DNA of 42,304 bases from a virus (lineage: Duplodnaviria; Heunggongvirae; Uroviricota; Caudoviricetes): the IMG/VR virus record IMGVR_UViG_2734482773_000007, one strand, 5' to 3'. Made by a program: the position numbers and the translations under genes. Below, in pieces: positions 2,071 to 41,979 of this stretch (position 1 is the first letter of the stretch; each line of letters opens with the position of its first letter). The notes beneath the pieces are model-generated. The model ran no database searches. It was not told the DNA's origin and worked only from the letters and a program-made list of their open reading frames with translations.

Positions 2071-3461
2071 GCTATACCTCTCTTTTTCATGGCATCGAGC
2101 AGGATGTCCTGCACTGTTCGTTTTGAGTTGCGCCGCTCCATCACCATTTCGTCCATAGTGTCGGCAGCAATAATGTGGTGAATAAATACCGGACGATTGT
2201 GTCCGGCCTGTATCTGTCTGGTTGGGCCGATACGTTCAATAATTTGCTGATACTGCTCCAGGTCCCACCAGTGTGAGAAAAATACCAGTATGTTTCCGCC
2301 GTCCTGCATGTTCAGACCGTGGCCCGCGCTGGCTGGGTGTGCAAAGAGAACAGGAATCTTTCCGGAATTCCAGTCACGTAGTGTCTGTGGATCTTGGTCG
2401 AGGTGACGACCGCGAGGAAATGCTTTAAGCAAGCGTTCAAGATCGTGTTTCCAGTGATAAGCAACCAGCACAGGTGCGCCAGCTGCTTCGGTCAATATGC
2501 TGTCCAGCGCCTGTAGTTTGGTGTCATGCAGTTCTGACCAACTTCCGGCGTCGTCTGTGTATACTGCGCCACTGGCGATTTGCAGACACTTCAGTGTCTT
2601 TGCCGCGGCGTTCGGTGCTTCGATGCCTTCGCCATTCAGCTCGAGGAACATTTCCTTTTCCATTTCACGATACTGCTGACGGGCCTTCGGCGGCATATCC
2701 ACGCGGATTACGTTATGGATGGGGGCTTTGATATCGAACCAGTCGGCCGCATCCAGCGAGAGGGTCACATCGGCTAATGCTCGCTGTATTTCAGCCTGTG
2801 AGTGAGCAAACGGCTCCAGTTTGGTCCAGCTCTGCCCTGGAAACTGTATCGAGTTGAACCAGCGTGAGGTAAACGCGCCGTAAGTGCGTCCGAGACGTTG
2901 CCCCTGGTCCACAAACCACGCTTGTCCCCACAAATCTACCAGGCCGTTCGGTGCTGGCGTACCGGTGAGATTTATCCAGCGCCGGACATACTTATGCGCC
3001 ACTTTGCCCAGCGCCGCCGCGCGCTTACCACCACCTCGCAGCCGGAAGGATTTTAGCCGGGTGCTTTCATCCGGAATGACAGTACCGAACGGCCATCGTT
3101 CTCCCAATTCTTCAACCAGCCAGACAAGGTTATCGTAGTTGATGGTGAACACGCTTGCGTTGCTGTTCGCCAGCGCCGTAGAGCGCGCTTTGGCATTACC
3201 AACAATCGGCTGTACCTCGATATTGCGCAGATGCTTCCATTTCAGCGCTTCATCCGGCCATGTGCTTGCTACAACGCGTAGCGGCGCGAGGACCAGTGCG
3301 GGGCGTGTTTCTGCCCCTGCCATAAAGAGATCTTCCAGCGTAGTGAGCGTTGCCACGGTTTTACCCATCCCCATCCCTGCCCAGATGTTGCCGCGCAGGG
3401 TTTCGGTTTCGTGGTTGATAATGAGATCTTGGTAGGGGCGAGGTATATATTTTTGGGGCAT
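2067..3461 (-). CDS. SNF2-family DEAD/DEAH-box helicase
   Basis: 464 aa; Walker A GMGMGKT near N-terminus, DEST (DExx-like) motif, C-terminal helicase motifs; RBS GGAGCC 7 nt upstream of ATG. Confidence 0.85.
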   Translation of the reverse strand: MPQKYIPRPYQDLIINHETETLRGNIWAGMGMGKTVATLTTLEDLFMAGAETRPALVLAPLRVVASTWPDEALKWKHLRNIEVQPIVGNAKARSTALANSNASVFTINYDNLVWLVEELGERWPFGTVIPDESTRLKSFRLRGGGKRAAALGKVAHKYVRRWINLTGTPAPNGLVDLWGQAWFVDQGQRLGRTYGAFTSRWFNSIQFPGQSWTKLEPFAHSQAEIQRALADVTLSLDAADWFDIKAPIHNVIRVDMPPKARQQYREMEKEMFLELNGEGIEAPNAAAKTLKCLQIASGAVYTDDAGSWSELHDTKLQALDSILTEAAGAPVLVAYHWKHDLERLLKAFPRGRHLDQDPQTLRDWNSGKIPVLFAHPASAGHGLNMQDGGNILVFFSHWWDLEQYQQIIERIGPTRQIQAGHNRPVFIHHIIAADTMDEMVMERRNSKRTVQDILLDAMKKRGIA

Positions 3462-3477
3462 ATAATATGGCTCCTAA

Positions 3478-3511
3478 ACAACAAAAGGCCAATTTAGGCC
3501 TTTTGTTGTTT
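3478..3511. terminator. perfect 14-bp-arm palindrome (AACAACAAAAGGCC-N6-GGCCTTTTGTTGTT), possible bidirectional terminator
   Basis: Read directly; GGCC core stem followed by U-rich arm on both strands; sits immediately downstream of the AT-rich gene 3525..4442 and upstream of the helicase RBS. Confidence 0.45.
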
Positions 3512-3524
3512 TAAAAAATGTTAT

Positions 3525-4442
3525 TTATAATAGTGCTGTTACTATTGCATCTTTAAAAATATTTTCTTCTTCATTTATTAAAGGTGATGACAGATGAATA
3601 ATTACTTCTTTTCCTGTCAATACTATTTGCTCGACTTGAAATCCTGCGTTGTGTAGTCTTTGGCGTAACTTTTCTAGTGCTGATTTTGATATACTAAATC
3701 CTTCACTCCTTATAGTATAACTGGCAACTCCATTTTTAATAATATCTACAGAGTTGTCAATTTCCTGCTGCGAGTAATTTTTCGGTGAGTCGAAAAATCT
3801 GGATTTTGTCGTTGCTGTTGCCCTAAGAGATATCAATAATGATTTGATATCTTTAATCTCAGATGCCAGATACTCAGTTTCTGATACTTCTTTCTGGTCT
3901 AGTTGTGCAACTTTGAAAGTGCCAAAATGTTTGAGGAATGTTGTGTATTCAGGATCAGTTACTGACTTTAAATATGTTTCTTTTATCTTGCTCGCAAGTC
4001 TTTCTTTGAATAAATTGATTGATTGGTATCTTAAATCCGAAGGGTACTCTAAATGTTCAATTGATGAAATGTCAAAGCTATAAGGAGTGCGCTCGTCCTT
4101 AATAATTACGGTCGGTTTGTCAAATGCGAGACGCATTCCTAATTCAAACATTACATTAGCGTTTCGAGCACTTATATCGCAAACAACTATGGGGTTTTCA
4201 TAAAGATTTTGAACAATTCGTTTTTGTATTACTGCAACATCATCATCTGAACTTACCAAATTTGCCTTGAATCCGGCATCATTTGATGCTTCACAAATAA
4301 TGTCATGAACATTTCTCCAATGTCCAGTGGGATAACCTTCTATGTCCGCAATTGGCATAATAATGCCGCATATATGAGGTGGCATATTTTTGTTGTCTTT
4401 TACATCATCTTGGTTTATTTCTTTCGTTTGTTGCTTAGCCAT
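3525..4442 (-). CDS. AT-rich accessory protein: N-terminal TIR-like/ThsB-like domain plus ~170-aa C-terminal domain of unknown function
   Basis: 305 aa; codon usage visibly AT-rich versus neighbours; N-terminal pattern IIMPIADIEG ... NPIVVCDISARNANVMFELGMRLAFDKPTVII resembles the beta-strand / N-V-x-x-E-x-G core of TIR-like (ThsB/DUF1863-type) folds; RBS AGGAGT upstream. Confidence 0.5.
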   Translation of the reverse strand: MAKQQTKEINQDDVKDNKNMPPHICGIIMPIADIEGYPTGHWRNVHDIICEASNDAGFKANLVSSDDDVAVIQKRIVQNLYENPIVVCDISARNANVMFELGMRLAFDKPTVIIKDERTPYSFDISSIEHLEYPSDLRYQSINLFKERLASKIKETYLKSVTDPEYTTFLKHFGTFKVAQLDQKEVSETEYLASEIKDIKSLLISLRATATTKSRFFDSPKNYSQQEIDNSVDIIKNGVASYTIRSEGFSISKSALEKLRQRLHNAGFQVEQIVLTGKEVIIHLSSPLINEEENIFKDAIVTALL

Positions 4443-4457
4443 AGCTTACACAGACTC

Positions 4458-4742
4458 CTATTGTAATTTTTTGCCTAATATACATGAAAGCTCCTTACTA
4501 TCCAGTACTACCACGGTAAAGCCCAGTTTTCGCAGACGTTCATGCTCGCGCAACTGATCAGGTCGTGGTGGTTTGCCTGGTGCTTTGCATTCGACAAAAA
4601 CGATGCGACCGCCGGGTAGCAGAACAATGCGATCTGGTACCGAGCGGAGACCGGGAGATACGAACTTAAAGGCAACCCCGCCAGCCTTTTTTACTTCAGC
4701 GACGAGGTGCTTTTCGATTAGGTTTTCACGTTCATAGGCCAT
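4458..4742 (-). CDS. VRR-NUC domain nuclease
   Basis: 94 aa; PD-(D/E)xK-like core (VLLPGGRIVFVECKAPG); VRR-NUC commonly accompanies SNF2 helicases in phage replication modules. Confidence 0.75.
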   Translation of the reverse strand: MAYERENLIEKHLVAEVKKAGGVAFKFVSPGLRSVPDRIVLLPGGRIVFVECKAPGKPPRPDQLREHERLRKLGFTVVVLDSKELSCILGKKLQ

Positions 4743-4936
4743 TAGCTTTCGCCTTCCTGCTTTTTGCGTTTCTTCATGCAGATAGCGCAGTTCTCAGGAT
4801 GGTCATGCCATTCGTCAATCCTGATACCTGTGAACATCCATTTTCCGCATAGTGATATGGCTTCCCCCGAATTAAAGAAATGTGCTTTTTTCGACAGGGC
4901 GGGGAGCCCCCAACCTTTATTATCGATATTAGACAT
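4742..4936 (-). CDS. small hypothetical phage protein (Cys/His-containing)
   Basis: 64-aa ORF, 1-nt overlap with VRR-NUC start suggests translational coupling; contains HDHPENCAIC. Confidence 0.45.
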   Translation of the reverse strand: MSNIDNKGWGLPALSKKAHFFNSGEAISLCGKWMFTGIRIDEWHDHPENCAICMKKRKKQEGES

Positions 4937-5120
4937 CGTCCACCTCCTTACGCTTTTCGCGCATGTTCTGCATCAGACAAAAATCAAACCGACGTTCGCT
5001 TTGGCCCAGACCTGCATCGCCCGGTCGTACCCGCTGGACTGTTCAAGGCGCAAAGCCTCCCGCGCAGTCCGGTAATAAAGCGGACTGTCCCGGTATTTAA
5101 ATGACATAGGGTTTTTATTC

Positions 5121-5147
5121 CCAAATAAAAAACCCCGCGATGCAGGG
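5121..5147 (-). terminator. rho-independent terminator downstream of 5172..5933
   Basis: On the minus-strand RNA: CCCUGC-AUC-GCGGGG stem-loop (one G-U pair) followed by UUUUUUAUUU; 25 nt past the stop codon. Confidence 0.55.
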
Positions 5148-5171
5148 TTGTAATCAACAATAAGGGGGTAA

Positions 5172-5933
5172 TTACGAGGAAGCGTTAGCTATTTGAGCTT
5201 GTGTAAATTCGAAACCAGAATTTTGTAACCGTTGCACTAGACGAGGAACTGTTTCACGTACATGGTCGTTGAAATTCAGATACAAAATCCCGTTAGCATC
5301 AGAAGGCTGTTCTAGGTGCTGTTTCTGAAGGATTGCTACATTGCTGCGCCCTAAGGACGAAAGAAGCATACCCATCTCGAGTACAACGTTCTGTCTTGCG
5401 CGGGGTTGGATTTCTGCTTCACCGGCGCGCTTTGAGTATCCCATATCATCAGGTGTCAAAAGAACAATCCCGAAACGGGTAGCAGTTTGTCCTTGCCCAA
5501 TTTCACGTTCAAGCTCTTCAATAATGGTGAGTCCAGTCCCTCCCGTATTCTGCAAAATGAAATGGTCTGGTAATCCAAGTTTATGAAGGATTAGCTCAAG
5601 TTGCTCCTTTGCAGTATGGTCATGGCCGTGAACAATGAATATCTTTTTGGGGAGCTCAGATGGCTGTTCTACGGCTAGTGGTGTTGCCGTGGGTGGCGTT
5701 CCTAAATGGGTCATTATTGCAGTTTCAACATTGGGACGTTCTTGAGGGTTACCTTGAAACTGAATGGTCCGGGTGGTGTAAAGGTTAACAATTACGCCAT
5801 TCGTTAAACGATAGCAGTCACAAGTCTCACGCTGTTCGTGGGAAAAATTGGTGAACCCACACTCCCTCAAAAAGTCAGGAAAAGTTTCTCTCGGGTATGG
5901 ATAGGTGATCGGCATTTCAGTTAGTTCCTGCAT
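5172..5933 (-). CDS. two-domain accessory protein: N-terminal unknown domain plus C-terminal TIR-like domain (candidate anti-phage effector)
   Basis: 253 aa; C-terminal half KIFIVHGHDHTAKEQLELILHKLGL ... RFGIVLLTPDD ... ARQNVVLEMGMLLSSLGRSNVAIL matches what I recall as the TIR-like 'predicted nucleotide-binding' family signature (VFIVHG start, NV..E.G core); own terminator downstream. Confidence 0.55.
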   Translation of the reverse strand: MQELTEMPITYPYPRETFPDFLRECGFTNFSHEQRETCDCYRLTNGVIVNLYTTRTIQFQGNPQERPNVETAIMTHLGTPPTATPLAVEQPSELPKKIFIVHGHDHTAKEQLELILHKLGLPDHFILQNTGGTGLTIIEELEREIGQGQTATRFGIVLLTPDDMGYSKRAGEAEIQPRARQNVVLEMGMLLSSLGRSNVAILQKQHLEQPSDANGILYLNFNDHVRETVPRLVQRLQNSGFEFTQAQIANASS

Positions 5934-5997
5934 AAGTATTGTTCCTTTAATTTACTCGAATTCAGCATGTCGCCATAGCTCGATAAGGTGAGTTATA

Positions 5998-8061
5998 TCA
6001 ATCTTTTTTGTAGTGGTACGCCTCAAAACCGCCAGCGTTCAGTGGGATATCGGGCGCCCATTCGGGGTCAGTGGAGAGAAGCGCGGAAAGCGCTTTATCG
6101 TTGAAATCTTCTGTGTCAGGTGCTTCGGTGATCACCTCGTCGTGTACCGTCAGCACAATGCTGTAACCGGCATCTTCGATAAGCGGTATGTTTCCGGCCA
6201 GAACGTCGCGGGCGGCCGCCTGGGTGACGTTCTCCACCAGCTTTCCGCCGTAGGTTTTGAGTCGTTGCCATTTACGCGAATAAGAGTTAACACCCATGTA
6301 GGTGATATTCCCTTGTTCGATAACCGGAGACGGGTAGCATACAGCGCGTCCGGATGGTAGCTGTATGCGCAGCCACGCGCCATCGCGGCGGATTTTAAGA
6401 TAACCGCAATACAATGTTTTTTGCGGTGTGGCGATTGCAGTGCGGACGGTGCGCTCCAGTTCGTACCAGAAATCGCAGGTCGCCGGGTGCGCCCTGCGCC
6501 AGAGACGTTTAAGTGAGTCGCAGGCGATAAATACCCGTTCAGAAAGCCCGTAGGTTGACTTGCGTTTAACCGATTCGTCGTACCAGCTTTTCGCCTCGCG
6601 GATAACATCGCGGGGAATGTTTGGCAGTGCGGCGTTCGCCAGCTCGTCGAGATCGAGACCGTAAACCAGCGCAAAAGTGATGAAAGCCGATACACCACCA
6701 CCATAACCCAGACCGAGCTCCATGACTTTACCGATCTGACGCATGTGTTTATCAACATCATTTGGTGCAATATCGAAAGCTTTTGCATACGCCAGTTTAT
6801 ATAAGTCCGGACCCGTTCCGGCGTCGTACTCTCTGAATGCATTCAGTTTCCATTCTTCTCCCGCCAGCCATGCCAGCATACGGCCTTCAATGTTCGACAA
6901 GTCACTTACCACCAGCTTTTTGCCTGTTGGCGCGATAATGCAGCCACGTAACGCTGAACTGGTTAGTTCCATGATATTGTCAAACAGCAGGTCTGCACAT
7001 CCGGCTTTCAGTGCTTCGATGCCTTCGTCTATTTGTTCCTGTTTTAGTGAAGGGCGGGGAAGGTTCTGGGGCTGGAATAGCCGTCCGGCCCAACGACCGG
7101 TACGTGACGCCCCGCAGAACTGTAGCGTACCGCGTAAGCGCCCGTCGTGGCTTACGCCTTTCATCAGTGCCTTGTATTTACTGGTGCTGGTAGTACTGGC
7201 CTGCAGGCGGATAGCCAGCAGTTCTTTCACGGCAGATGGTAAATCGGGGTCGGCAATACGACGTTCCAGAGTACTGCGTTGCATGTCTGGTAGCTCCACA
7301 CCGTAGGATTCAACAATGTGCTTAATCAACGCGTCTCGTTGTGTGGCTGCCTGCACTTCGCCATCAGTCATTTCCTGTGTACGCTTTGCCAGGCGCTTTT
7401 GTTCCTGGTCTACCGCATCGATCGCAGCGCGTGCGAGTTCCACGTCCATGCAGACGCCCCGGTCGTTGATCTGCTGATCACGATGCCAGAGCGCCAGTTC
7501 TGTCCCCTGATAATTCCACTTCGGCAGACGTTTATAGACTTCGCGCATTGCCTCGATATCCAGTCCGGCGTAAGCAACAAAGCGCCGCCATTCTTCCGGG
7601 TGGGTTTTGCTGGTGGCCCGGCGCAGTTTGCTGTTTTTCGGGCGTGGCTTACAGAACAGCTGGATCAGCGCTTTACCTTCTTTGTCCTTCGCTTTGTCTT
7701 GCGGGACGCCTAGTACTTCGCAGAGTTCCCCCAGAGACCCCGGGAGACCGTGCGCCAGCGCCTGCACCATTGTGTCGCGCCAACGTTCGATTGGCGGTGC
7801 CAGGCGCGGCATTGCATAACGCAGGACGGTGCGGTCGAAGTGAGAGTTATGGAAATAAAGCAGGGTTTCAGGGTCTGCGATTGCTTCGTATAAGCCGTGT
7901 GGAATACCACCACCGGCAGTGATATCCCACACGTTTACGGGTCCGTCGTTGATAGCCCATGCGAACAGCATCACTTCAACGCCTTCGGCATACGCATGGG
8001 TACCGTTCGTAATAGGGATTTCGCAATAGGTTTCTAGGTCACCCCATAGTATATTGGACAT
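5998..8061 (-). CDS. family-A DNA polymerase (PolA-like, with N-terminal 3'-5' exonuclease-like region)
   Basis: 687 aa; overall resemblance to phage PolA proteins; sits within helicase/nuclease/primase replication module. Confidence 0.75.
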
Positions 8062-8117
8062 AAAATAACCTTGTGTGATATATGGTTATGTAGGTGTAAA
8101 TAAACAAGGAGACGGCG

Positions 8118-8387
8118 GTGTTTAGCTTTGGTATCGGAATACTTTCATTGATAGGTATTATTGCTTTCCCCATTCTTTATATTTTAGGGAGAATAGTTCG
8201 GGCTGGTGGCGCATGGCTCGAACGTGAAGAAGGTCCTAAGGATCGTGTTCTTCCCAAAATTATAATTTTTGCGCTTATTGGGTTCTTTCTTGGGTGTTTG
8301 GCTCAGCCTGTATGGGACAGCATTTCGGTATGTAGAGACTATGGCAATCCAATAGGGAAATGTCTTTTTAAATTCAATGAATTTTAA
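8118..8387 (+). CDS. small membrane protein on the opposite strand (moron-like)
   Basis: 89 aa, GTG start with AAGGAG RBS 6 nt upstream; two hydrophobic segments (FGIGILSLIGIIAFPILYIL and IIIFALIGFFLGCLA); AT-rich; orientation opposite to the surrounding operon. Confidence 0.5.
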   Translation: MFSFGIGILSLIGIIAFPILYILGRIVRAGGAWLEREEGPKDRVLPKIIIFALIGFFLGCLAQPVWDSISVCRDYGNPIGKCLFKFNEF

Positions 8388-8403
8388 TTTTTAGTATTGC
8401 GGT

Positions 8404-8444
8404 AGGCTGGTTTGGATAACTATTTTCTTAAGCCAGCCTTTGTT
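8404..8444 (+). terminator. hairpin (AGGCTGG ... CCAGCCT) plus T-rich tail after the membrane-protein gene
   Basis: 7-bp perfect stem with a long 22-nt loop then TTTGTT; weak but correctly placed. Confidence 0.3.
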
Positions 8445-8454
8445 ATAAGAAATA

Positions 8455-9093
8455 TTAAGCATCTACCCCTTCGTCAGAAGGGAGGCCGATCATTTCGTTG
8501 AGAGTTTCGCGTCGTATAGCTGGCGGAAGCGGAGCAGATGGTGCATCGGCTGGCAGAAGTTCTTTAGCTTCAGGCCACTCTTCCAGCAGGCGCTTAACTG
8601 TGCGCACTTTACTGAGTGCAGCGCTGACATTCTGTCGAATGTCTGACTCATCGCTCTGTATCTGCTCATAAAGTGCATCAAACCCGTAAAACTCTGTAAC
8701 TAGAGGGTCATTTGCCAGAAGGGTAAATTCCCCCGGCGCGATTTTGTGAATATGGTCTGGTGACCCTGATTCATATCCTCGATAGTTACCGTTGAAATAG
8801 ACGGTAACCCGAGAACCTGCCAGATTCAGACACATGTAACACTCTTTCCTGATAATATTATTGGCGGTTTTTAATGCTTCGGGGAATTTTGATACCAGTG
8901 TTTCTATTTTTTTTATAATTTTTAATATTTCAGCTTCTTTCTCTACGCCCCCGATAGCTGCAAGCCGAACACGTTCGGCCCATTCAACACGAGCAGCTCG
9001 TAGTGCTGATTTACGTTTGGGGATACCCGCTTTCTCAAGTGCGTTATTGATGATTTGAGTTTTAAGGTGATTAGTTAATACGGGCTGTGACAT
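8455..9093 (-). CDS. hypothetical phage protein
   Basis: ORF extends to 9123 but GAGGGA RBS precedes the Met at 9093 (MSQPVLTN...); no recognisable motifs. Confidence 0.5.
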   Translation of the reverse strand: MSQPVLTNHLKTQIINNALEKAGIPKRKSALRAARVEWAERVRLAAIGGVEKEAEILKIIKKIETLVSKFPEALKTANNIIRKECYMCLNLAGSRVTVYFNGNYRGYESGSPDHIHKIAPGEFTLLANDPLVTEFYGFDALYEQIQSDESDIRQNVSAALSKVRTVKRLLEEWPEAKELLPADAPSAPLPPAIRRETLNEMIGLPSDEGVDA

Positions 9094-9144
9094 TATTCTT
9101 TCCCTCATGAGATACCCCAGCACGTAGCTGGGGGATGAATATTT

Positions 9145-11012: not shown

Positions 11013-11915
11013 TTAACCCTCCAGTGCTTTTTCAGCTAGGGTGATTACTTCAGCGAGATTTTCATCCGTTACTTCACCAAGTTTCCTGGCTCCCTGTTTT
11101 TCCAGAATTGCAATAGCTTCTGCCCGGTAGCCCCCTTTTGCTAACTGGAGGATCAACCCTTCAGCTTGTTTGCGTAGTGCCGCGAAATCAATTGTATGGT
11201 CATCTTTGGCGTCATTATTCTGGCTGGAATTTGCTGCGTCTCTGCGTGCAAATTCTTCCTGCAGCTGAAGGTACTCAACACGGTTGATCTCGATATGGCC
11301 TTTTTTCAGCATCTCGTTCAACTTGCGTAAGGTGTGGAGTTCACTGGCTGCTGTGCCGGATACATTTTTGACGTAAAACGGCCCCGTGCGTTCTCCATCC
11401 TTGTTACTGGCCTTTTTCGGCTTAACTTCATCACGCCCATCCGCAGGTGCATCAAGTAGCTGCTCGGCAAAAGCACGTCGCTCGCCGATGGTTGGCAGGT
11501 CGTCCCAGAACTTAAGGATGTTACGGGACAGGTCCAGGAGAGCAGGTTTAAGCAGCGCCCTGGCTCGTTTGACGCCCTGCAATGCGCTGTCGAGAGCATC
11601 AATCTGAACTACTCGTTTATCGCCTTCAGCATCACGGTAGGCAACAGCACGTTGCAGCATGTCTTCTGTGATAGGGGTGGCTACCGGGTAGAAACCAGCC
11701 AGTGCGATAACGTCGCTGAACTCCAGATCATCCAGTGTCATTGCCGCTGACATATTTTCAGTTTCAGTTGCTGTATCCCGACATTCCTGCACTCGTGAAA
11801 TCGTGTCAGGATGCATAACAATGCCTGATGCCATTGTGCGGATAAGACGTTCAAGCAGCGCATTATGTTGTGCCAGAAGTTGATTATTAAGTTCTAGACT
11901 GGTTTCTAAACTCAT
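11013..11915 (-). CDS. hypothetical phage early protein
   Basis: 300-aa ORF, 3-bp spacing from upstream gene; helical, charged; no motif recognised. Confidence 0.5.
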
Positions 11916-12695: not shown

Positions 12696-13319
12696 CTAAC
12701 GTTTACGGCGGTAAATACGGTGTTCGATCATTACACCTATGATCTGTAAGTTCATATCTGCACTACGAAAAATAGGGTAATCAGGATTTAGGGGGATTAA
12801 TTCAAAGTCGTCGATGCCGATTCCTAATGGACGGTATTTTTTAAATGTAGCTTCGTGACCGTCGTTTTTGGCGACAACAAACTCCCCTGGTGCAGGACAT
12901 AGATCAGGATCGATGATAACAATGTCTCCTTCTTTAAACTCTGGTTGCATGCTGTCGCCATCGATACGTAATGCGAAGCATGTTTCTGGAATGTCAGAGT
13001 CTGCCAAAATATATTCAAATTCCCCTGTCAGATCTGTTATGTCTCTTGCTTCTGTAAGCTCTCCTGCCTGAACGTAACTTAATATAGGTATGCGTCTGGT
13101 ACTTATCTCCGCGAGAGGCATAATATTTTTACCGTTCAGTAGCCAGTCTGGGCTACATTTCAAGGCCTTAGCCAGATCCAGAAGATTGCGTGGCTTTCTG
13201 GTTCGTCCACTTTCGATGGATTCTATGGATTGTTGGCTAACCCCTGCAGAATTCGCTACTTCCACTTGAGTCATTCCTAATTCCAAACGACGTGCTTTAA
13301 AACGGGCTGCGAGAGACAT
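12696..13319 (-). CDS. CI-like prophage repressor (HTH_XRE + S24/LexA-type peptidase domain)
   Basis: N-terminal HTH (LGMTQVEVANSAGVSQQSIESIESG), C-terminal autocleavage-type domain (DGDSM ... K motif region); start chosen at internal Met (MSLAARF); divergent from a Cro-like gene. Confidence 0.85.
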   Translation of the reverse strand: MSLAARFKARRLELGMTQVEVANSAGVSQQSIESIESGRTRKPRNLLDLAKALKCSPDWLLNGKNIMPLAEISTRRIPILSYVQAGELTEARDITDLTGEFEYILADSDIPETCFALRIDGDSMQPEFKEGDIVIIDPDLCPAPGEFVVAKNDGHEATFKKYRPLGIGIDDFELIPLNPDYPIFRSADMNLQIIGVMIEHRIYRRKR

Positions 13320-13382
13320 GGGATTAGTCCTTCTGGGTTGTATTAATGTGTATCCCCACATTAAAAACAATTTTTGTTGTAT

Positions 13383-40491: not shown

Positions 40492-41037
40492 TTATGTGTG
40501 AGATGAGTTATAAATAATTTCAGAGTGAAATTTAGTAATGAATGTGGAGTCATCAGGAATGTCATGCAGTACCAATGCATGAGCTCCTATTTTTACATTA
40601 TTCCCTATATGCACTTTGCCACCAAGGATGGTGGCGTTACAGCCAATGGTTACATTATTTCCTATGACAATATCCATATCATTAAATTCACCGCGAAGTC
40701 CAATAGTTACCCCTGGCTTAATTGAACAATTTTCACCTATTGTAACTTTGTGACCGATAACAACGCCATTGAGATAAGATATGTCGAACCCTTTACCAAT
40801 ATTTACAGTTAAGGGAACGGTTACATTGTATTTATCAAGAATGAAGCGTTCTATTTTTCCTGCAATCTTTCGCCGGTATCCTCCTTTATCAAAAAGATAT
40901 TTTGCTACGCGCCACCAAAATAAATAACGTAATCTTCTGTGTTTTATTGCGCGAACAATTGCTTTTCGCCAGGAGAAAGGGCGTTTATAACCTATTACTT
41001 CATAGTGTATACAGTTTTTAAGTTCACTAATATTCAT
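40492..41037 (-). CDS. hexapeptide-repeat acyltransferase (left-handed beta-helix; candidate lysogenic-conversion acetyltransferase)
   Basis: 181 aa; repeated [LIV]-G-x-x-x-x-I-G units (VVIGHKVTIGENCSIKPGVTIG ... IGNNVTIGCNATILGGKVHIGNNVKIG); AT-rich; convergent with Tfa, 10-bp gap. Confidence 0.7.
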   Translation of the reverse strand: MNISELKNCIHYEVIGYKRPFSWRKAIVRAIKHRRLRYLFWWRVAKYLFDKGGYRRKIAGKIERFILDKYNVTVPLTVNIGKGFDISYLNGVVIGHKVTIGENCSIKPGVTIGLRGEFNDMDIVIGNNVTIGCNATILGGKVHIGNNVKIGAHALVLHDIPDDSTFITKFHSEIIYNSSHT

Positions 41038-41331: not shown

Positions 41332-41979
41332 CTATGAAGCTAATTTGTTTAATTTCATTTGTAGCGACTTTACTTCTTGGTCGATAATGTTGAATCCCTT
41401 ATTGACTGCATCTCTTAGTTCTGCATCAATATTTTTTATCCCTTGAGCATAATCTACCATTACATCTATTTTTTCATCATGTAATCTCTTATACATGGTT
41501 TTATCTTTGTTATTGTCAGCCATACCAATAAGGATTTTTTCATAATCCTCAATGAGTTTGTTGTTTCCTTTAAATGATTGTATTAATGACCGTGAATATG
41601 TGTAGATATTAATTATTGAGTCTCTGGCAGAATCATTTAGTTTTGCAATGACATTCGCATTTTGCTCATAGAATGTGAAATTATCATCCCCTACAGGGAA
41701 AGTGAGAATTAACATCTGTCCGGGTTTGATATTATCAATGTGTGTTTTCATCCTTTTATTATATAAATTGATTAGGGTGAAAACTTCTCCCTTAACACCT
41801 TTTAATACTGAAAGTTGCAATTCAAGGGATTCTCTTTCTGTCTCTACTTTAGACAGCTTAGCTTGTTGGGTAACTCCTTTTAGGGTAAACCATCCGCCAA
41901 TAAGAGTACCAACTAGAGCTGTGAGGGAGGAGGATAACCATCCAGGAATGCTATTTAAAAAATTACTAAATTCACTCAT
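41332..41979 (-). CDS. AT-rich hypothetical protein with N-terminal transmembrane anchor
   Basis: 215 aa; N-terminal hydrophobic segment LSSSLTALVGTLIGGWFTL then coiled-coil-like region; strongly AT-rich. Confidence 0.5.
   Translation of the reverse strand: MSEFSNFLNSIPGWLSSSLTALVGTLIGGWFTLKGVTQQAKLSKVETERESLELQLSVLKGVKGEVFTLINLYNKRMKTHIDNIKPGQMLILTFPVGDDNFTFYEQNANVIAKLNDSARDSIINIYTYSRSLIQSFKGNNKLIEDYEKILIGMADNNKDKTMYKRLHDEKIDVMVDYAQGIKNIDAELRDAVNKGFNIIDQEVKSLQMKLNKLAS

Follow-up and report, generated by a model that had tools for sequence, protein, structure and literature searches.

A reverse-oriented cargo gene of an Escherichia coli prophage belongs to an unnamed family of small, two-helix membrane proteins borne by mobile elements

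The window analysed here is the whole 42,304-nucleotide (nt) stretch of IMG/VR record IMGVR_UViG_2734482773_000007, a temperate myovirus-type prophage of Escherichia coli that is integrated beside yfhL/shoB and related to Escherichia phage vB_EcoM-606R2. Inside its long minus-strand operon lies a plus-strand gene for a predicted inner-membrane protein of 89 amino acids (aa). This gene is one member of a sizeable family, as yet unnamed, that has a clear signature and is borne mostly by mobile elements; its place in the prophage is a defined cargo hotspot. It is best regarded as a 'reverse moron', that is, a horizontally acquired, self-contained cassette inserted backwards in the hotspot. That prophage morons code for small membrane proteins is well known; the family and its slot are new. 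From the genomic context, we infer that the gene is expressed in the lysogen and may serve superinfection exclusion. By analogy with known systems, we tentatively regard its product as a single-gene inner-membrane factor whose likeliest action would be to block the entry of superinfecting phage genomes. The gene and its signals are as follows.

8038..8066, plus strand: candidate sigma-70-like promoter, weak (GTCACC-17-TAAAAT, 8/12, relaxed scan)
8106..8111, plus strand: Shine-Dalgarno sequence AAGGAG, read from the sequence, 6 nt 5' of the GTG
8118..8387, plus strand: coding sequence of the small membrane protein, 89 codons, GTG start, TAA stop
8127..8189, plus strand: transmembrane helix 1 (residues ~4-24), from hydropathy and column conservation; G7 near-invariant, S10 and Y21 conserved
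8190..8252, plus strand: basic loop (residues 25-45), predicted cytoplasmic, with R28, A32-W33, R36 and P40-K41-[DE]42-R43-V44
8253..8315, plus strand: transmembrane helix 2 (residues ~46-66), with G55-x3-G59 and Q63 (93%, 100% and 99% conserved, respectively)
8316..8384, plus strand: C-terminal tail (residues 67-89), predicted periplasmic; C72 and C82 invariant, G76 86% conserved
8404..8446, plus strand: hairpin (stem 8404-8439) and TTTGTTAT, intrinsic-terminator-like on the plus strand only

The open reading frame (ORF) is real. The PGAP annotation of E. coli BH100N calls the same ORF as a hypothetical protein (WP_000490741.1), and a chance ORF is ruled out by the existence of 118 homologous clusters, nearly all of them full length. 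The N-terminus encoded from the GTG lines up with the Met of the homologues, in which GGAG-type ribosome-binding sites are found at equal distance. Downstream of the gene, the plus strand folds into a stable hairpin (-23.2 kcal/mol, z = -3.8, with none of 200 shuffles equally stable) followed by a T-tract, while the minus strand of the same region folds weakly (-10.6 kcal/mol, z = -1.2) and lacks a U-tract; the hairpin is strand-specific, and therefore can end the transcript of the small gene without blocking the opposing operon. A strict terminator scan, which demands a loop of 3-8 nt, did not call the hairpin at 8404-8446. GC hairpins directly 3' of the stop codon are also present in Serratia, Undibacterium and other homologues. 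The genes on both sides, DNA polymerase (5998..8061) and Nmad5 (8455..9123), are encoded on the minus strand, as are DUF2815, DUF2800 and the genes beyond, and the GC content is 0.365-0.41 over positions 8000-8500 vs. 0.54-0.60 in the polymerase gene. The initial annotation, made from the letters alone, had described a plus-strand ORF with its own ribosome-binding site and hairpin, lying in an AT-rich patch inside a minus-strand operon, and it proved correct on all these points.

The family was delineated by an exhaustive phmmer search (HMMER) of a library of 1.84 billion representatives, which returned 118 homologous clusters at E <= 1e-3 and 36 at E <= 1e-10, nearly all of 80-100 aa and aligned end to end. 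A word-indexed homologue search found near-identical E. coli proteins only, and the same kind of search with the family alignment, considering the best 8000 candidates, added little. Further loci were collected by scanning genomes and metagenomes with a degenerate 129-nt motif and filtering the hits with the family hidden Markov model (HMM). In the 69-sequence alignment on which all conservation figures are based, G59, C72 and C82 are invariant and G7, G55 and Q63 near-invariant; the consensus reads ...R..AW..R...PK[DE]RV...GF..GS..QP.WD....C...G.....C., and the family signature can be summarized as 80-100 aa with two membrane helices, a PK[DE]RV loop, G55-x3-G59...Q63 and C72-x9-C82. Against the family HMM the window protein reaches 140 bits, and none of the invariant residues is missing from it. 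Members occur in Escherichia, Serratia, Pantoea, seven species of Pseudomonas, several Burkholderiales, Nitrosomonas, Methylophilus, SAR324 and a Sulfuricurvum plasmid.

Comparison with Pfam gave no meaningful match for the 69 members, and in particular no immunity family; at E <= 1 the window protein itself had a spurious SBF_like match only. It matched nothing in PHROGs and NCBIfam, and none of the PADLOC-DB v2 families at E <= 1, and the family profile matched no PDB sequence.

The two-helix architecture proposed initially is supported by hydropathy, which gives segments at ~4-24 and ~46-66, and by a confident AlphaFold2 model built from the family alignment (mean predicted local distance difference test score 86.8), with helices at 8-34, 44-74 and 79-86. 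Lys and Arg residues number ~5.2 per sequence in the loop vs. ~2 in the termini (summed alignment columns), and because the loop is basic the positive-inside rule predicts that it is cytoplasmic and that both ends are outside. The invariant Cys pair of the tail (codons 8331-8333 for C72 and 8361-8363 for C82) would fit an oxidising periplasmic location. In the model, which is a helical hairpin, helix 2 outruns the membrane and a short helix then returns C82 toward C72, so that a Cys72-Cys82 disulfide clipping the helix-turn-helix of the tail appears likely. Fold searches with the model retrieved generic hairpins only.

Further evidence comes from the place of the gene in the prophage. The minus-strand operon comprises, in the order of transcription, a gene for a 300-aa protein, DUF2800, DUF2815 (an Enc34-type single-stranded DNA-binding protein), Nmad5, the reverse gene, and the family A DNA polymerase, after which it continues with further genes, the last one encoding an SNF2 protein. 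This prophage family is found in about 159 of 5426 complete E. coli genomes, and comparison among its members revealed that the content of the interval between polymerase and DUF2815 is exchangeable. The features of this slot, its alternative contents and the other prophage genes referred to below are the following.

8062..9144, no strand: variable cargo cassette, holding the 89-aa gene (plus) and Nmad5 (minus)
8455..9123, minus strand: Nmad5-family gene (Pfam PF18757, 1.1e-56), converging on the 89-aa gene
Locus L003, 2791-3480, plus strand: alternative cargo, 229-aa gene, alongside a second Nmad5 type (~80% DNA identity)
Locus L006, 789-1388, plus strand: alternative cargo, 199-aa gene
Locus L007, 809-1438, plus strand: alternative cargo, 209-aa gene, seemingly a multi-helix membrane protein; also in phage 606R2
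Same slot of a relative: alternative cargo, BRO-N gene
Locus L010 (E. coli TUM1880), 2408-3889, minus strand: alternative cargo, 493-aa SIR2 protein, ThsA-like (PADLOC candidate PDC-S25, 3.9e-157)
5172-5933, minus strand: TIR protein of 253 aa (Pfam CAP12-PCTIR_TIR, 2.9e-31; PADLOC candidate PDC-S35, 6.8e-109)
12696-13370: CI-like repressor (helix-turn-helix and S24 peptidase domains)

The cassette takes up every base between the start codon of the polymerase and the stop codon of DUF2815. On its left, the alignment of relatives with other cargo ends in most cases at the polymerase ATG (window 8061); with the second Nmad5 type, homology is 27 base pairs (bp) longer and covers the polymerase ribosome-binding site (window 8088). 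On its right, homology returns at the DUF2815 stop codon (9144/9145) in relatives without Nmad5, and restarts inside Nmad5, at about window 8540, with the second Nmad5 type. The 229-, 199- and 209-aa cargo genes had no Pfam match, and the first two, scanned against PADLOC, had none there either. The small gene is not a remnant of one of the larger cargo genes, since the family HMM finds nothing at those loci. Across the polymerase gene from the cassette is another variable slot, which is occupied here by the TIR gene and in BH100N by ANR and methyltransferase genes. With a SIR2 defence candidate among its contents, the polymerase-DUF2815 interval appears to behave as a defence-cargo hotspot; a literature search on the hotspot of this prophage returned nothing.

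The 393-bp ORF region occurs in 32 of the 5426 complete E. coli genomes; its identity is at least 99.5% throughout, it never lies outside this slot, and the same Nmad5 type accompanies it in all 32. Obligate pairing with Nmad5 is ruled out, considering that a Serratia orthologue lacks Nmad5 and that the second Nmad5 type is paired with a different gene. Phage mutations that escape the Tmn defence system have been mapped to Nmad5 (2025 conference report, PMC12908700). The E. coli copies of the small gene are nearly invariant, against 2-10 variable sites per 100 bp in the genes that flank it, which points to a recently spread cassette.

Conservation of the ORF in related prophages, the check on which the initial annotation had made its proposal depend, is borne out beyond E. 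coli. In a decayed prophage of Serratia nevei, a 46% identical homologue (P0006) occupies the same slot, divergent from the family A polymerase and ahead of DUF2815 remnants, with its own GGAG site, an ATG start and a GC hairpin. In several unrelated prophage lineages the gene likewise runs on the strand opposite to the lytic genes. It lies on the opposite strand between the lysis and terminase genes of a lambdoid prophage of Pantoea ananatis, and on the opposite strand within the early operon of an Undibacterium prophage, near a CI/S24 repressor. At nine Pseudomonas-type prophage loci it adjoins a PhageMetallopep gene, and in all seven of the Pseudomonas-type contigs that include the rest of the packaging operon it is divergent from that operon. 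The PhageMetallopep gene is found in divergent arrangement with the family gene at L050, L059, L063, L074, L076, L088, L120 and L122, and in the six of these contigs long enough to show it, it heads the terminase-portal operon. In P. aeruginosa phage Pacha_bin_1, on which a literature search returned nothing, the family gene follows the endolysin gene on the opposite strand; in a lambda-like phage it is co-oriented, between the genes for the large terminase and the portal.

Other members are found in primase-integrase elements and integrase islands. In Methylophilus rhizosphaerae (L065, 1033-1375, 2935-3003 and 3469-3526) the gene is followed by an attC-like site (GTCTAAC...GTTAAGC); ORFs further downstream at this locus have GCCTAAC...GTTAGGC sites after them, giving it the look of an integron cassette array. 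The Nitrosomonas eutropha copy (L058) adjoins a divergent integrase. In a metagenome-assembled genome of SAR324, the gene (L047, 3381-3653) is followed after 114 bp by an OLD-family nuclease (AAA_15 and TOPRIM) and a UvrD helicase (3767-7230), a GajA/GajB-like pair that resembles the Gabija defence system. There is one copy of the family gene per locus, and no neighbour is conserved across lineages. About 20 of the approximately 35 informative loci are in phages, integrase elements or integrons.

Reverse orientation in prophages and location in a cargo hotspot fit a protective gene expressed in the lysogen. In the lysogen, where the replication operon would be silent, transcription of the small gene could proceed without oncoming RNA polymerase; in the lytic phase, transcripts reading through from Nmad5 into the polymerase gene would cross it antisense, and the hairpin would be no terminator in that direction. 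Because no partner gene is conserved, the protein would act alone at the inner membrane, presumably guarding the lysogen against something that needs to cross it. Most likely this would be the incoming genome of a superinfecting phage, excluded at the step of DNA entry in the manner of T4 Imm, HK97 gp15 and P22 SieA. The suggestion of the initial annotation that such genes are superinfection-exclusion or immunity factors is therefore upheld in part: orientation and slot fit a protective gene, while the specific function is read from the context.

It should be noted that several observations weigh against this assignment. Among 50,697 deposited phage genomes only one has a detectable member of the family, and a tblastn search of the same genomes with the E. 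coli protein gave no match. Searches of PADLOC, PHROGs and Pfam yielded no match for the window protein, which also lacks sequence or profile similarity to any known exclusion protein, and a literature search on accession WP_000490741.1 turned up nothing. No sigma-70 site is found upstream of the gene at the standard 9/12 rule, the best match being 8/12; the weak candidate promoter at 8038-8066 overlaps the polymerase start codon on the opposite strand. The E. coli copies vary at a single site (V71A) in 270 bp, and therefore selection (the dN/dS ratio) is not measurable within this lineage. The same motifs are kept across Gamma- and Betaproteobacteria and Campylobacterota, and such deep conservation would be unusual for proteins that track fast-evolving phage parts, suggesting a conserved host target instead. 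Finally, in three lineages the gene is located 29-33 bp, or a few genes, downstream of genes for type I secretion or microcin export.

This last point raises the main rival possibility, somewhat doubtful in our judgement, that the protein is an orphan bacteriocin immunity factor. It would shield the lysogen from a competitor's toxin exported by type I secretion (a class II microcin-like or RTX-type bacteriocin), either through binding to that toxin or through masking of the toxin's receptor in the inner membrane. Like the present protein, the known immunity proteins for class II microcins have a length of 50-100 aa and two or three membrane helices. One case is homologue P0015 (L023/L024), in which 29 bp separate the gene from a preceding C39-peptidase ABC exporter; a LuxR regulator, an HlyD-like protein and two short ORFs that have double-glycine leaders (...EIDEVAGG and ...EIEEVSGG) belong to the same cluster. 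This apparent class II microcin-like cluster (L023 4969-5226, 6091-6246, 6831-8972 and 9001-9276) is part of a metagenome-assembled genome. Homologue P0012 follows an RTX type I secretion cluster (ABC, HlyD, OEP and HlyC genes), P0020 starts 33 bp after a 1281-aa RTX-type protein, and two more loci have an ABC ATPase homologue within ~1-2 kb. However, the secretion-linked loci are a minority (~5 of the ~35 informative ones), and neither the window nor any prophage copy has an exporter, toxin or leader-peptide gene in the neighbourhood of the family gene. In addition, no profile similarity to the colicin V immunity protein or to Pfam/NCBIfam immunity families was detected, and in the L023 cluster the immunity gene could be another one, namely a 174-aa membrane ORF directly after the first leader peptide.

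Cor, a prophage protein that confers protection against colicin M as well as excluding phages (PMC3594210), is a point in favour of bacteriocin immunity and a precedent for dual protection. It is conceivable, although we consider it unlikely, that the family is a new pan-proteobacterial single-gene 'entry-immunity' module, borne by prophages, satellites, integron cassettes and bacteriocin clusters, binding a conserved inner-membrane component of the host (e.g. a receptor of the sugar-transporter type or an energy-transducing complex) and so blocking the entry of phage genomes as well as the import or pore formation of type I-secreted bacteriocins. Such a module would explain why the family is present both in prophage morons and in microcin loci.

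A conserved host partner is also what the conservation of the loop and helix 2 motifs across distant bacterial classes would suggest if the protein were an accessory factor unrelated to invaders, modulating a host inner-membrane machine (a transporter, a protease or an envelope-stress sensor) to the benefit of the lysogen or of the lytic cycle of the phage itself. Three chromosomal copies (L055, L066 and L067) that have housekeeping neighbours only are in line with this. We nevertheless hold it to be improbable, in view of the strong bias of the family to prophages, integrative elements, integron cassettes and hotspot slots and of its patchy, strain-level distribution in 32 of 5426 E. coli genomes, a combination typical of conflict genes, not of housekeeping modulators.

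Class II holins have both ends inside. It is very improbable that the protein is a membrane-damaging effector of the abortive-infection, holin-like or type I-toxin-like kind, which would do no harm or stay silent before infection or induction and would then form oligomers through its GxxxG helix and depolarise the inner membrane, thereby halting phage growth or setting the time of lysis: although it is a small, hydrophobic two-helix protein with a conserved G55-x3-G59 in helix 2, although its antisense arrangement to the operon could give RNA-level control, and although the slot also carries SIR2 and adjoins a TIR gene, both abortive-type effector domains, the gene stands alone, with no sensor or antitoxin partner even as an integron cassette; it lies outside the lysis cassette (holin and lysozyme genes at ~17.7-18.7 kb, plus strand), 9 kb away from it; the both-ends-outside topology predicted from charge and the invariant outside Cys pair differ from those of class II holins; and 89 aa with a structured loop and a tail exceed the size of type I toxins, with no Rfam family matched by a scan of the whole window.

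Some further features of the prophage may be mentioned. The 305-aa and 300-aa operon genes (window 3525-4442 and 11013-11915, both minus strand) have no Pfam match. At the right end, past the tail genes, two reverse-oriented genes (40492-41037 and 41332-41979, both minus strand) are present, one coding for a hexapeptide-repeat acetyltransferase, possibly a surface-modifying factor of lysogenic conversion, and the other being a 215-aa ORF without a Pfam match. Signs of decay are visible among the relatives: the polymerase is frameshifted in enterotoxigenic E. coli H10407 (L008 1-773), and in EH2252 (L005 3474-4414) IS1 interrupts Nmad5 and a deletion reaches the lysis genes.

Genome annotation and the catalogues of defence systems tend to miss small membrane proteins, and the family described here, with more than 100 clusters, a sharp signature and a strong bias to mobile elements, yet no entry in Pfam, NCBIfam, PHROGs or PADLOC, is a case in point. 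If the protein is an exclusion or immunity factor, it would add a compact, 270-bp single-gene module to the protection genes borne by prophages, and would mark the polymerase-DUF2815 slot as a defence-cargo hotspot comparable to those of P2/P4-type elements. The occurrence of the family in prophages as well as at microcin and type I secretion loci offers a handle on the question of whether phages and bacteriocins can both be warded off by a single inner-membrane protein.

One of the closest known systems is gp15 of phage HK97: expressed from the prophage, this small inner-membrane protein keeps the genomes of other phages from entering (PMC3594210). Morons have been defined as inserted DNA with deviant GC content and with a promoter and a terminator of their own (Juhala/Hendrix, restated in PMC3594210), and the small gene shows insertion between conserved genes, deviant GC content and its own terminator. 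Like gp15, it is a self-contained cassette between conserved phage genes, of deviant GC content and with a terminator of its own, that encodes a small inner-membrane protein; the HK97 genome also has an annotated 'reverse moron', gp23. The two proteins are nevertheless not homologous (hhalign probability 1.1%): gp15 has 62 aa, a single N-terminal hydrophobic stretch and no Cys pair, and derives from the enterobacterial YebO family (PMC3594210), while the present family is two-helix and extends over several proteobacterial classes.

Another is T4 Imm (Pfam Imm_superinfect), which is of similar size (83 vs. 89 aa), has two hydrophobic inner-membrane helices and, according to the annotation of the T4 record, acts alone to stop injected DNA at the inner membrane; coincidentally, it also adjoins the DNA polymerase gene. 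There is no homology in this case either (hhalign probability 0.5%, no Pfam match), and Imm, which comes from a lytic phage, has the same orientation as the genes around it and lacks the Cys pair. The colicin V immunity protein Cvi is likewise a small inner-membrane protein (78 aa) that acts alone, and as for class II microcin immunity, the distant homologue P0015 occupies the position expected of an immunity gene. Cvi shows no homology to the family (hhalign probability 0.1%), the window contains no microcin or exporter genes, and a microcin structural gene with a C39 ABC exporter/HlyD next door, absent from the window and from all prophage copies, accompanies P0015 only.

SieA of phage P22 is larger than the present protein and belongs to a different family. 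Two reports describe it as a prophage-expressed inner-membrane protein that alone is sufficient to block the entry of superinfecting DNA (PMC10883804, PMC11436027). By this description it is, like the product of the small gene, a prophage-encoded inner-membrane protein, and expression of the small gene from the prophage would be a further likeness, by analogy. On the comparisons made here, the gene would therefore resemble HK97 gp15, T4 Imm and P22 SieA in architecture and setting rather than in family.

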